Below are positions 60,291 through 63,947 of a DNA stretch of 64,000 bases, one piece after another. The notes under the pieces were generated by a model. That model was not told the origin of the DNA and ran no database searches. It saw only the letters and a program-made list of their open reading frames with translations. The position numbers and the translations under genes were made by a program. Every line of letters starts with the position of its first letter. Position 1 is the first letter of the stretch. The stretch lies in sequence record PQ805429.1; one strand, given 5' to 3'. This DNA comes from Escherichia phage EK5.

Positions 60291-62081
60291 ATGTCAAAGA
60301 TCATTTTGGGAGACACAGGTTGTAAGGAATGTATCTCTCATGGTCGTGATAAAACCCACAACCACATGATTCTCTTCCGTAACGAAGAGACTGGTGAGGA
60401 GTGGGGAAGTTGTAACCGTTGTGGGAATTACGAAGTGTTCGAAAAGGGCACTACACCTACTCCAAACGAGAAGAAAGAGTTATCCCCTGAAGAGTTGAGA
60501 GAAGTCTTAGATGATTGCTTAGAGCTTCCTCAGGGTGAACTTACTCGCCGTTTAATCCCTAAAGCTGTATCAGAGCGGTTTGAGTGTCGTATTGGCCTCA
60601 GTCAAACTGATGGTCAGACACCAGACAGTTACTTCTTTCCTCGTGAACGTGATGGAAACATTGTCGGGTATGAGGTGAAGCTGCTAGATAGTAAGAAGTT
60701 CTATTACGTCGGCAGTGTGAAAGAGGCAGACCTATTTGGTATGGCACAAGCTCAACGTGGAGATGTGTACAACAAGAAGCTCTTCATTTTTGAAGACCCG
60801 CTATCCTGTATGTCAGGTTTCCACGTCCTTACAGCTTTTACAAATGCAACAAACATTAAACCAGCATGTGTTTCTTTACCGTTCGGTGCAGGTTCAATCT
60901 CTTCTGTGTTGTCTCGTAATCGAGACTTCGTAAATGGTTTTGAGGAGGTTGTGCTCTGCATGGACAACGATGATGCAGGTGAGATAGCTTTAACAAAAGG
61001 TCGTTCTTTATTCCCTCATGTTAAGTTTGCTCGTATTCCTAAAGGAACTTTCCCATACAACGGTGTGGAGAAAGAGATTAAGGATGCGAATGACATGCTT
61101 CTGTCTGGTCGTGGTCAAGAGTTATTCAACATTCTCAAGTATTCAGCAAAGCGGGAATCTCCTGCTGGTGCTGTAACAATCTTTGATTGCCTTGATGATG
61201 CTCTGAAGAAAGCGGAGTGGGGTATTCCCTATCCGTGGAAAACTCTTAATGAGATGACCTTCGGTATTCGATGGGGAGAGGTGGTAGCAATTGGCGGTGG
61301 TGTAGGTAGTGGTAAAACACTGATTGCTCACGAGCTGGTTGCTCATCTGTGCTTAGAGCACGGTTTTAATGGGGGTGGCTTCTTCTTGGAAGAGAAGGTA
61401 GGCATGTCTGTTAAGAACATTGCTGGTAAGTCAGCATCAATTCCTTTCCACCGACCTGATGTTGAATATGACGAGGAAGATTTGCGTAATGAAGCACTTC
61501 GTTATGCAGACAAATTCTTCTTGTATGACAACTTCGGACAGAATGAATGGGAAGACATTAAACAGTGTATCCGTTTCTGGGTAGTTGAAAACCAGTGTAA
61601 GTTCATCATCCTTGATAACATTACCGCTCTGGTATCTCATTTAACACCTTCAGAGATTAACACTGAAATCAGTAAGATTGCTTCCGAGCTTGCTGGTATG
61701 TGTAAAGAATTAGACTTTACCGCTTTCGTGCTATCTCACCTTAATGCTCCGGCAGGTGGTGCTCCTCATGAAGAAGGTGGGCAGGTACGTGAAGTACAGT
61801 TCACTGGCTCTCGTTCTCTTATGCGTTGGTGTCAGTGTATCATTGGCTTTGAGCGTGATAAGCAAGCTGACGGCTTAGCTAAGAACCTCTCAGTCATTCG
61901 ATTACTGAAAGAACGTAACTACGGTCAGACAGGTGTCTGTTATACTAAGTATATCAGCGAAACCGGTAGACTTGTAGAAAGGGAAGACTTTGAAGTTGAT
62001 GAAGATAATCCATTCGTTTTAACTAACGGAGAGGATGCAGCTTCTCTCGTCAACCAAGCAGATGGAGCTTCACCGTGGTAA
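60291..62081 (+). CDS. DNA primase-helicase (T7 gp4-like)
   Basis: N-terminal zinc ribbon (CKEC ... CNRC), TOPRIM-like [11 protein letters not shown], DnaB-type Walker [10 protein letters not shown] and Walker [10 protein letters not shown]. Confidence 0.8.
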
Positions 62082-62632
62082 AGAAAAAGAAGAAAGTGTT
62101 TGCATTCGATATCGAGAGTAATGCACTGTACGATGACATAACTAAAGTATGGTGTATTTATATCTTCGATGTTGAAACTGGTGAAAGGTGGGGCTATCGG
62201 CCTCACCAAATTGAAGACGGGATTCGTAAACTGACAGAAGCGGATGTACTAGTGGGTCATAATATTATTGACTTCGACTTACCTGCTCTGAAGAAAATGT
62301 ATCCCTCTTTGATTAAATATAATTTTAACGTCTTTGACACTTTATGTCTTAGTCGATATCTTAAACCTGACCGTATTGGCGACAGTCCTGAGTATCCGAA
62401 AGGCGACCCTAGACGTGGCCCAAGAGGTCATGGCTTAAAGCAATGGGGTGAGTTCTTAGAGGAACTTAAAGGTGACTACGGTGAGCAAGAGGAAGCATGG
62501 GATGCTTTCACTGAAGATATGTTTACTTATTGTGAACAGGACGTTAACTTGACTGTTAAGGTTTATCTTTTCTTGTGTGAACTCACGGGATTTGACCCTT
62601 ACGACCCACCTTCATTATATTGGAAAATGTAA
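62075..62632 (+). CDS. Stand-alone 3'-5' exonuclease (family-A polymerase proofreading-domain type)
   Basis: Exo I FAFDIESN, Exo [15 protein letters not shown], Exo III YCEQDV; terminates at TAA after 185 aa. Confidence 0.7.
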
Positions 62633-62633
62633 A

Positions 62634-63947
62634 ATGATTGTTATCCCGATTAACCAAATTGAAGATAAGGTTGCTCAACAACCTGATATCACTGTTGGTC
62701 GTCACTTCATTGAACAGTTGATTAACAACAACTTGATTCCAGATGGTATCTGTCCCATCATTACTGGTGGGGCTGTTCGTGATGCTGTCCTTAATAACAT
62801 AGCTCCACATGACATTGATATCTTTATTGTCAGAGGACAAACACCAAGAACTCAAAACACTTTCATCCCAACTGATCGTTGGCAAGAGCTTGGACGGGAG
62901 ATTGAAAGTAATGTGAAGGAATGGCTAGAGTCACAAGATATTGAATATGCATCACTTCTTGCTGAAGCTACAAACGAATCCTATGCTGGGGGTTCTCAAT
63001 TAACATTCACTGATATTATTGAGTTTCAGTGGAATGGGGTTCGTATCCAATTCATGTTTAATTATCCTACTTCTATTGAAGAGGTATTGGATAATTTTCC
63101 TATGATGTGCCGTGGTGCGATGACTCTTGACAACTTATTCATGACTTCTCACGGATATTTGGCTATGACTTCCCCTTGTCCAGTGGTTGTCTCTAGTCGT
63201 GAAATCAGGTATGTTCACAAGAAGTGGCCTAACTCGCAAGTGTTGAGATTTTCCTCTCCAGCAGCTGCACATCAATACATGGCCCAAACTCGATATCTTC
63301 CCACACCTCAACCGGTTAGCCAACTGGTCAACGAACGAGGTCAGGTTGCTCTTATTGAGGATACAACAAGTGCTCAATATTGTGTTAACCGAGACATGAG
63401 TCTATTCTTTGGGATCCCTTATGAAGAGATTCTGTTAATGTCAAGCGTTCACGGGTCTGGTCAGATTCGTGCGTATTGGTCTGAAGGGTTGACAAATTTA
63501 ACAACTAACACGGGTGGTGATCTGCTTGGTCGAGAAGAGGAACCTAACCGACACAATGCAATTGAAGGGGTCTTTGTAGCCCCTGCAATGCGTAGAGCAC
63601 AAGAGTCACGAAGAGTAAGCCCTACTCGTAGAACATCTTTTGAAGAAACTCTCGGTATTACAAGTGATTCTATGGAGCGATGGATGGCTAGACCCTCTCG
63701 TGGTCGACCAAACGGCTTAACTGTTAGCGCACGTCAGTTCTCTGGTCAGGGTTTCGCTGTTGGTGATATCAACGCACCTGTTAGGGCTGTGTGGACTGAT
63801 GAAGATATGGAACAGGATTTGGGAGATAGTCTCGCTGATCAATTTGTTGCCAACAACCCTGAAGTGTTGCAGCCTCAAACCCGTATAGTTCGGTTTGCCG
63901 ATGAAGCGGGTCGTGGAATCTCTTTTGACATGGAAACAAATAACTAA
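62634..63947 (+). CDS. Pol-beta superfamily nucleotidyltransferase-like protein
   Basis: ITGGAVRDAVLNNIAPHDIDIF fits the G-[GS]-x(9-13)-D-h-[DE] motif and resembles the GGAVRD head motif of CCA-adding/poly(A) polymerases; ATG 2 nt after the exonuclease stop. Confidence 0.45.
   Translation: MIVIPINQIEDKVAQQPDITVGRHFIEQLINNNLIPDGICPIITGGAVRDAVLNNIAPHDIDIFIVRGQTPRTQNTFIPTDRWQELGREIESNVKEWLESQDIEYASLLAEATNESYAGGSQLTFTDIIEFQWNGVRIQFMFNYPTSIEEVLDNFPMMCRGAMTLDNLFMTSHGYLAMTSPCPVVVSSREIRYVHKKWPNSQVLRFSSPAAAHQYMAQTRYLPTPQPVSQLVNERGQVALIEDTTSAQYCVNRDMSLFFGIPYEEILLMSSVHGSGQIRAYWSEGLTNLTTNTGGDLLGREEEPNRHNAIEGVFVAPAMRRAQESRRVSPTRRTSFEETLGITSDSMERWMARPSRGRPNGLTVSARQFSGQGFAVGDINAPVRAVWTDEDMEQDLGDSLADQFVANNPEVLQPQTRIVRFADEAGRGISFDMETNN

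Follow-up and report, generated by a model that had tools for sequence, protein, structure and literature searches.

A nucleotidyltransferase gene adjoining the proofreading exonuclease of Escherichia phage EK5 and its probable relation to the Gad2 anti-defence family

We analysed a stretch of 64,000 nucleotides from Escherichia phage EK5 (sequence record PQ805429.1; hereafter the window), in which a stand-alone 3'-5' exonuclease gene is followed by a gene for a Pol-beta-type nucleotidyltransferase (NTase). The exonuclease, of 185 amino acids (aa), is almost certainly the proofreading subunit of a split T7-like DNA polymerase, an arrangement already known, and the NTase is probably a divergent enzyme of the Gad2 family, whose studied member counteracts the Gabija defence system. 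The explanation that we consider best as a whole, and which we hold to be somewhat on the probable side, is that the replication (middle) operon of a Kuravirus here carries two adjacent, co-transcribed genes whose functions are separate. We propose, tentatively, that the NTase transfers nucleotides onto a macromolecular target and in this way serves counter-defence or host takeover. This account is built on homology, fold, motif content, synteny and evolutionary rate, from which a catalytic activity, a target and an anti-defence role of the NTase are suggested.

On sequence grounds the window can be assigned to Kuravirus (phiEco32/SU10-like), being about 97% identical to SkaterBoy_Bas90 (hereafter Bas90). 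Its last 4 kb show 97-98% DNA identity with the Kuravirus phages Bas90, ShigP1 and SU10, all members of the phiEco32 group, that is, C3-morphotype podoviruses with genomes of about 77 kb. The gene pair has been annotated in many genomes and the split polymerase has been published; the exonuclease half is textbook knowledge for this phage group and changes nothing. The link to Gad2 and the hypervariability of the NTase provide a testable lead: an orphan gene annotated in about 100 genomes of Escherichia coli and Shigella phages is now linked to the Gad2 anti-defence family, and it is a diversity hot spot in an otherwise nearly invariant replication operon.

The nucleotidyltransferase and its relation to Gad2

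The NTase gene and its parts are as follows.

62634..63947, plus strand: NTase open reading frame (ORF), 437 aa, Pol-beta-type; its ATG at 62634 lies one base after the exonuclease stop
62634..63488, plus strand: folded catalytic core, residues 1-285; GGAVRD...DID intact, NFP at the position of RRD, Y193/K196/K197 conserved
63489..63947, plus strand: predicted disordered C-terminal tail, residues 286-437, delimited from pLDDT, alignments and the dN/dS of the tail

A longer mechanical ORF from GTG 62577 exists, and all homologues, as well as the SU10 and Bas90 annotations, start at MI.IP. A preliminary description of this DNA, made from the letters alone, had noticed a GGAVRD...DID signature in the gene after the exonuclease and had denied that this gene is a polymerase domain, and both observations were borne out. 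The signature residues G45, G46, A47, R49, D50, D60 and D62 are invariant in 46 homologues, down to 30% identity, and so are F155 and P156 (of NFP) in the family alignment. Because the catalytic residues are invariant, the NTase probably has enzymatic activity. Searches of Pfam, NCBIfam and PDB sequences did not find polymerase motifs A, B and C in it, nor was a polymerase present among the 50-60 best fold matches listed; these motifs reside in the homologue of SU10 gp051, which is described below. Sequence searches of the NTase against PDB, NCBIfam and the PADLOC models gave nothing usable.

When the structure was predicted by AlphaFold2 from the 46-sequence alignment, residues 1-285 were obtained with a per-residue confidence (pLDDT) of about 90 and residues 287-437 with one of 25-35. 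The tail is variable in length, cannot be aligned between genera and is missing in the shortest family members (P0075, 282 aa). Five homologues (P0059, P0066, P0067, P0069 and P0072) end, after the predicted disorder, in aromatic motifs (RFSFN, EYDF, RWQW, GGWTF and RRFNF), and an [SA]xR[FW] motif is recurrent near the tail ends; these may be docking motifs, which are not consistent across the family.

The assignment to Gad2 is based on several profile matches. Most of the Kuravirus homologues carry a precomputed match to PF26128 (Gad2, Gabija anti-defence 2). When 1.84 billion representative proteins were searched exhaustively by HMMER, just 31 clusters scored below 1e-10, which marks the family as rare; the next matches are small NTases of phages, about 200-290 aa long (P0087, P0088 and P0099; E 2.6e-7 to 2e-4), that have strong precomputed PF26128 matches. 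We also compared the family by hhalign with a Gad2 profile composed of nine homologues that the discoverers had tabulated, among them the Brevibacillus protein verified by experiment, and obtained a match of 93.8% probability (E 1.7e-7, 122 columns) spanning GG, DxD, the IQxM strand with its invariant Q, F-x-x-x-C-x-G and the R...Y helix. Among the residues invariant in the nine Gad2 homologues (GG, DxD, FD(F/Y)T and P...R...Y), the NTase keeps GG, D60/D62, R189 and Y193, and the Asp of FD(F/Y)T is replaced by Pro156.

The relation to the enzymes that add CCA to tRNA is more distant. The NTase fold resembles the head and neck of class II poly(A) polymerases (PAP) and CCA-adding enzymes, and motif A agrees closely, GGAVRDAVLNNIAPHDIDI here being aligned with IVGGAVRDLLLGKTPHDVDV of PDB 6ibp in the GGxVRD...DxD pattern; the stretch aligned in this PDB profile search was 21 residues only. 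The sole local Pfam match of the NTase is to the PolyA_pol head domain, with E 0.002 and 18.8-20.8 bits, below the cutoff of 23, and hhalign of the family profile against E. coli Cca and PcnB gave 21.9% over 30 columns, with motif A alone matched. The Gad2 profile itself matches Cca/PcnB with 78.6% (E 1.7e-5, 180 columns), placing FDFTV on RRDLTIN and YP..S.LRV.KY on EDPLRVLRVARF. Because the profiles match from NTase to Gad2 and from Gad2 to Cca/PcnB, the NTase can be placed in a phage lineage descended from class II CCA/PAP enzymes; as far as the profiles tell, the Gad2 lineage is a trimmed offshoot of these enzymes that has shed the tRNA-binding body and tail.

Motif B (RRD), which reads the ribose of the incoming nucleoside triphosphate, is missing in the NTase: the transitive hhalign alignment sets RRDLTIN opposite FDFTV of Gad2 and NFPMMC of the NTase. 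In the region of motif D (EDxxR), PVVVSSREIRYVHKKW here stands against EDPLRVLRVARF, aligned through the Gad2 profile only, and has no ED pair. The body and tail domains that hold tRNA are likewise absent, as only residues 1-285 fold and the short members end at about 280 aa. Class II CCA enzymes and bacterial PAP I (PF01743; PDB 3aql, 1ou5, 3h37 and 1miv) differ from the NTase in possessing the RRD motif B and the body and tail, and also an EDxxR motif D that is not recognisable here in the profile alignment. A role as a tRNA CCA-repair enzyme is thus not supported. In comparisons of the kind that the preliminary description had proposed for 62634-63947, the gene matched no polymerase, the CCA/PAP sequence match covered motif A only, and the best profile match was to Gad2.

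Gad2 is a protein of 400 aa with a predicted NTase domain. Bacillus phage SPbetaL7 becomes fully Gabija-sensitive when its gad2 is knocked out, a co-expressed Gad2 homologue neutralises Gabija, and SPbetaL7 Gad2 is toxic when expressed. Gad2 of SPbetaL7 and of the Brevibacillus prophage have in common with the NTase the homologous core, the phage-borne location, and variability in size and in the C-terminal part. They differ in the helix motif (GGxITS in Gad2, GGAVRD here) and in the C-terminal half, which is structured and about 170 aa long in Gad2 and is replaced here by the predicted disordered tail; moreover, the NTase has a fixed locus in a replication operon and not in an anti-defence island.

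A second group for comparison is the small podophage NTases annotated with a poly(A) polymerase head domain (PHROG 1614), e.g., Gp22 of Klebsiella phage fHe-Kpn01, those of LKD16 and phiAS7, and VPR_014 of Vibrio phage Vp_R1. They share the structural core (Foldseek E 1e-7 to 1e-4, target-normalised template-modelling score 0.4-0.6; PHROG 1614 at 1e-7) and, like the NTase here, are found in replication or nucleotide-metabolism modules of lytic podophages. They differ in being 170-250 aa long without a tail, in keeping the FDF Asp (in the inspected ones) and in their genomic position. Gp22 of fHe-Kpn01, a CCA-like NTase of 182 aa, is toxic in E. coli. VPR_014 (3848-4558, minus strand) is a GGxxRD...DxD NTase of 236 aa located beside PhoH and ribonucleotide reductase genes, not beside the stand-alone exonuclease gene of Vp_R1.

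The exonuclease, the split polymerase and the gene order

The preliminary description had reported an exonuclease ORF that carries motifs Exo I-III and stops after 185 aa, and had mentioned as one alternative a split polymerase with its catalytic part elsewhere. The first statement was reproduced by the ORF check, the T7 alignment and Pfam; the second proved to be right.

62075..62632, plus strand: stand-alone proofreading (3'-5') exonuclease, a subunit of a family A polymerase of T7 gp5 type that is split, from T7 homology, Pfam and PHROG
2401..3243, plus strand: separate 5'-3' exonuclease (FEN-like), from Pfam 5_3_exonuc_N at 7e-6 (26.3 bits, below the gathering score of 34.3) and PHROG 107 'exonuclease' at 1e-64

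The ORF runs from GTG 62075 to TAA 62632 and aligns with residues 3-178 of T7 DNA polymerase (gp5) in a phmmer search of PDB (E 1e-11). Taking Exo I as DxE, Exo II as Nx2-3[FY]D and Exo III as Yx3D, we found all catalytic residues kept and aligned with the T7 motifs: D12/E14 in Exo I, D68 in HNIIDFD in Exo II, and Y152/D156 in Exo III. Pfam DNA_pol_A_exo1 matches at 2e-8 (34.7 bits, above the gathering cutoff of 23.6), and the PHROG 'DNA polymerase exonuclease subunit' matches at 4e-76. A covalent join to a polymerase domain is lacking, since the ORF ends at 185 aa, as in the known split variant.

In SU10 and Bas90 a DNA polymerase gene of 614 aa lies about 7.3 kb downstream of the exonuclease gene. 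SU10 gp051 (614 aa) covers T7 gp5 residues from about 289 up to the C-terminal end at 698 and has no exonuclease part; on T7 coordinates it starts at roughly the point where the exonuclease ORF leaves off. The preliminary description had suggested locating a polymerase gene in the rest of the genome; a tblastn search of the 64-kb window with SU10 gp051 found none, and the polymerase body therefore lies past the window end, at about 7.3 kb downstream if placed as in SU10 and Bas90. The exonuclease would dock on this separately encoded body (thumb, palm and fingers) and edit its errors. The polymerase I-type functions are thus distributed over three genes, for the 5'-3' exonuclease, the 3'-5' exonuclease and the polymerase. 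Precisely this separation was described for phage YF01 (gp27, gp70 and gp49, respectively) and stated to be common to all Kuravirus-like phages and their relatives (PMC9965538), and the separation of polymerase and exonuclease was stated for the LUZ24 group with citation of the phiEco32 paper (PMC3517423).

T7 gene 5 polymerase (PDB 1skr and 6n7w) is one polypeptide, whereas the exonuclease and polymerase genes are about 7.3 kb apart here. Three podophage groups, phiEco32-like (Gordonclarkvirinae), LUZ24-like (Bruynoghevirus) and Privateer/Vp_R1-like (Grimontviridae), likewise have the primase/helicase followed at once by a stand-alone 3'-5' exonuclease of some 180 aa, with the polymerase encoded separately downstream and the 5'-3' exonuclease separate as well. 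Gene order and sequence here match those of SU10, Bas90 and phiEco32 with no substantive difference; the window simply ends before the polymerase.

The neighbours of the two genes in the window are the following.

60291..62081, plus strand: T7 gp4-like DNA primase/helicase (Pfam DnaB_C 1e-10; PHROG 239 1e-175; same annotation in SU10 and Bas90)
63957..64000, plus strand: start of the dCTP deaminase (DCD) gene, with ATG at 63957, cut by the window end

The primase/helicase is the first gene of a conserved block, and its stop codon overlaps the start of the exonuclease (GTGGTAA). Start and stop codons of the primase/helicase, exonuclease and NTase genes overlap or are one base apart, an arrangement of translational coupling. 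The order in the annotated SU10 and Bas90 genomes is gamma-glutamyl cyclotransferase, a small ORF, primase/helicase, 'DNA polymerase exonuclease subunit', 'nucleotidyltransferase' and dCTP deaminase, followed by about 20 mostly small genes, including those for thioredoxin, ThyX and PhoH, and then by 'DNA polymerase'. DCD stands directly after the NTase in SU10, Bas90, KBNP1711, ECBP2, SU7 and metagenomic relatives.

A sigma-70-like site (TTGACC-18 nt-TATATT, 62592-62621, plus strand, 10/12 matches) closely precedes the start of the NTase gene and falls within the 3' end of the exonuclease gene, and a predicted promoter is annotated at the equivalent place in the SU7 record. Our promoter and terminator scan of 59000-64000 gave 9 promoter-like sites against 9.4 expected by chance; because the count equals the chance expectation, a separate NTase promoter at 62592-62621 is not evidenced.

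The exonuclease is found without the NTase in other groups. Proteus phage 3H10_20 (Privateervirus) lacks the NTase and has the order primase/helicase, exonuclease and dCTP deaminase; Pseudomonas phage Delta (Bruynoghevirus) has small ORFs and then the polymerase after its exonuclease; and in the C3 phage Vp_R1 the exonuclease lies at 19393-19929, next to the primase. These gene orders of Privateervirus, Bruynoghevirus and Vp_R1 led us to reject the idea that the exonuclease and the NTase form a conserved functional pair.

Divergence of the nucleotidyltransferase and its possible roles

Among cultured phages the NTase family was found in E. coli and Shigella Gordonclarkvirinae only (97 records). 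Searches by tblastn of the phage collection with the distant members P0099 and P0075 added no new cultured hosts, and a search for related loci on viral contigs returned five known Gordonclarkvirinae genomes only, including NJ01, phiEco32, KBNP1711 and ECBP2. The position between exonuclease and DCD is kept in the clade and in metagenomic relatives, even at about 30% identity. The rate of divergence distinguishes the NTase from its neighbours, as is seen from the identities to Bas90.

KBNP1711: primase/helicase 95%, DCD 96%, exonuclease 85%, NTase core 42%
ECBP2: primase/helicase 94%, DCD 95%, exonuclease 79%, NTase core 39%
Metagenomic P0058: primase/helicase 83%, DCD 85%, exonuclease 68%, NTase core 39%
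Metagenomic P0059: primase/helicase 83%, DCD 84%, exonuclease 69%, NTase core 34%
Metagenomic P0075: primase/helicase 77%, DCD 80%, exonuclease 57%, NTase core 32%

Within Kuravirus we used three comparisons that are divergent at the NTase (phiEco32, NJ01 and an IMG/VR contig) to obtain non-synonymous (dN) and synonymous (dS) rates. For the NTase core dN is close to 0.06 and dS close to 0.5, as compared with dN of at most 0.008 and dS of 0.1-0.2 in the primase and DCD genes; dS of the NTase is thus 2-5 times that of the flanking genes. The ratio dN/dS is 0.11-0.14 for the core, 0.3-0.5 for the tail and at most 0.07 for primase and DCD. The pattern describes divergent NTase alleles exchanged between conserved flanks under relaxed but real constraint, which is not housekeeping-like. 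Diversity in the block is thus concentrated in the NTase, and its raised dS suggests allele exchange by recombination. In one contig (IMGVR_UViG_3300045988_017452) the DCD obtained by automatic ORF extraction has 58% identity while its neighbours have 97-99%; this could be a replaced allele or an extraction artefact.

Because the NTase diverges far faster than its flanks and because its studied relative Gad2 is a toxic anti-Gabija protein, we put forward, as a tentative proposal, a role in counter-defence or host takeover. The head-plus-neck core of 285 aa with its intact two-metal site (GG, D60 and D62) would transfer a nucleotide to a nucleic-acid 3' end or to a host protein, and the predicted disordered tail of 150 aa would serve docking. 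Several observations weigh against the Gad2 assignment or this proposal, and the chief reasons for caution are the first two. The fixed place between exonuclease and DCD would be expected of a gene central to replication or nucleotide metabolism rather than of a mobile anti-defence gene, and Pro in NFP stands for the Asp of FDFT, the residue that corresponds to the D of RRD and is shared by all nine Gad2 homologues in the alignment. In addition, hhalign matches the Gad2 profile up to about column 165 only, and the structured C-terminal half of Gad2 lacks a counterpart in the NTase; the PF26128 match on P0004 is marked 'weak'; and the core is under purifying selection with no signal of positive selection. 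As to the published work, the mechanism of Gad2 was still listed as unknown in February 2026 (PMC12904381), and the BASEL panel applied to Gordonclarkvirinae does not contain Gabija.

A different interpretation, which appears unlikely to us, is that the NTase and the adjacent DCD make or install a non-canonical nucleotide shielding the phage DNA from restriction. It draws on the remarkable restriction resistance of Gordonclarkvirinae, in connection with which the BASEL authors speculate on the conserved DCD and NTase locus (PMC11990801), and on the adjacency of NTase and DCD in every family member examined, to about 30% identity; the loss of the motif B Asp that reads the ribose 2'-OH (P156) could also fit a dNTP or another substrate. 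However, the block also encodes ThyX and thioredoxin, and on this account the ordinary provision of dTTP for an AT-richer genome suffices to explain DCD; exonuclease and DCD occur in Privateervirus without the NTase, and no modified base has been reported in Gordonclarkvirinae phages. An enzyme acting on a chemically fixed substrate is not expected to stand at 40% identity while DCD stands at 95%.

The level of NTase identity between genera (about 40%, with neighbours at about 95%) is unlike that of a housekeeping repair enzyme, which bears on the idea that the NTase acts on RNA 3' ends. In this idea a minimal CCA- or A-adding enzyme or poly(A) polymerase, perhaps together with the exonuclease, would repair tRNA (the phage tRNA-Arg or host tRNAs cut by a defence nuclease) or tail host RNA for decay. 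We regard it as improbable, even though motif A (GGAVRD...DID) hardly differs from its counterpart in CCA enzymes and the phage has a tRNA-Arg(TCT) gene. Motif B is an invariant NFP, the EDxxR region is not recognisably conserved, body and tail domains are absent, with residues 287-437 predicted to be disordered, and the PolyA_pol score is below threshold. The exonuclease is a domain of DNA polymerase and occurs without the NTase in relatives. The preliminary description had named such a pair as its other alternative, citing the phage tRNA at 46228 and a P-loop protein at 1545-2438, and this suggestion is not supported: the pairing is not conserved outside one phage clade, and RRD, body and tail are missing. 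The tRNA gene already encodes CCA, and E. coli has its own Cca; the P-loop ORF (1539-2438) is a dNMP kinase (PHROG 139, 2e-56), an identity also given in the literature (PMC9965538). A reading of that ORF as a polynucleotide kinase for tRNA repair was thereby rejected, and neither an RNA ligase nor a polynucleotide kinase was found among the window ORFs scanned against family libraries. The single tRNA-Arg(TCT) gene itself is located at 46228-46303 (plus strand) and ends in ...GGGTGCACCA, the discriminator base and CCA being encoded; its presence has been explained by AGA codon usage (PMC9965538).

A further reading, which we think distinctly unlikely, takes the NTase as a new kind of nucleotidyl transferase, working without a template, by which DNA ends of the phage or the host, or a defence protein of the host, would be marked. 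If true, it would explain the resistance of Gordonclarkvirinae to nearly all tested restriction and defence systems and would reveal how Gad2-family enzymes disarm DNA-end sensors such as Gabija.

We give still less credence to a replisome accessory. As such the NTase would link the separately encoded exonuclease and polymerase, or act in genome-end processing, either without catalysis or in the manner of a terminal transferase, its tail docking on the replisome. The C-terminal tails of T7 gp2.5 and gp4 bind gp5, and the long predicted disordered tail of the NTase, with aromatic ends in several members, resembles them; the gene is also translationally coupled with those of primase/helicase and exonuclease, in a locus conserved inside the replication module. 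Against such a subunit, split-polymerase phages of the LUZ24 and Privateer groups have no NTase, the small NTase of Vp_R1 adjoins PhoH and not the exonuclease, the catalytic residues are invariant, and the tail motifs are inconsistent across the family.

Finally, an enzyme that makes or mimics a cyclic or linear oligonucleotide, e.g., as a decoy for CBASS- or CRISPR-type signalling, is very improbable: the nucleotide signal raised in the preliminary description finds no PADLOC match, the CD-NTase matches are far weaker than those to PAP/CCA enzymes, the fold and family models of cGAS/DncV-like enzymes do not fit, and the GGxVRD motif A is of the CCA/PAP/Gad2 lineage and not cGAS/DncV-like.

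Kuravirus phages are therapy candidates with a broad host range and striking restriction resistance, and Bas90 is tractable on E. coli K-12; studies of the NTase in these phages could inform both Gad2 biology and phage host range.

Other features of the window

Directly after the 5'-3' exonuclease gene lies a gene for a Dam-type N6-adenine DNA methyltransferase (3237-3749, plus strand; PF05869, 7e-49), to be noted against the BASEL paper, in which the restriction-resistant Gordonclarkvirinae are described as having no known DNA-modification pathways (PMC11990801).

Upstream of the primase/helicase, 50493-60071 (plus strand) holds a conserved cluster for amidoligase, COOH-NH2 ligase, glutamine amidotransferase, ATP-grasp (RimK-like) and gamma-glutamyl cyclotransferase, which suggests a pathway of peptide or amide-bond modification. 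Another ORF, of 269 aa (41959-42768, plus strand), has collagen triple-helix repeats (Pfam 4.5e-9) and a YadA-like outer-membrane anchor (2.9e-19), and its predicted product looks like a phage-encoded protein of the trimeric-autotransporter type.

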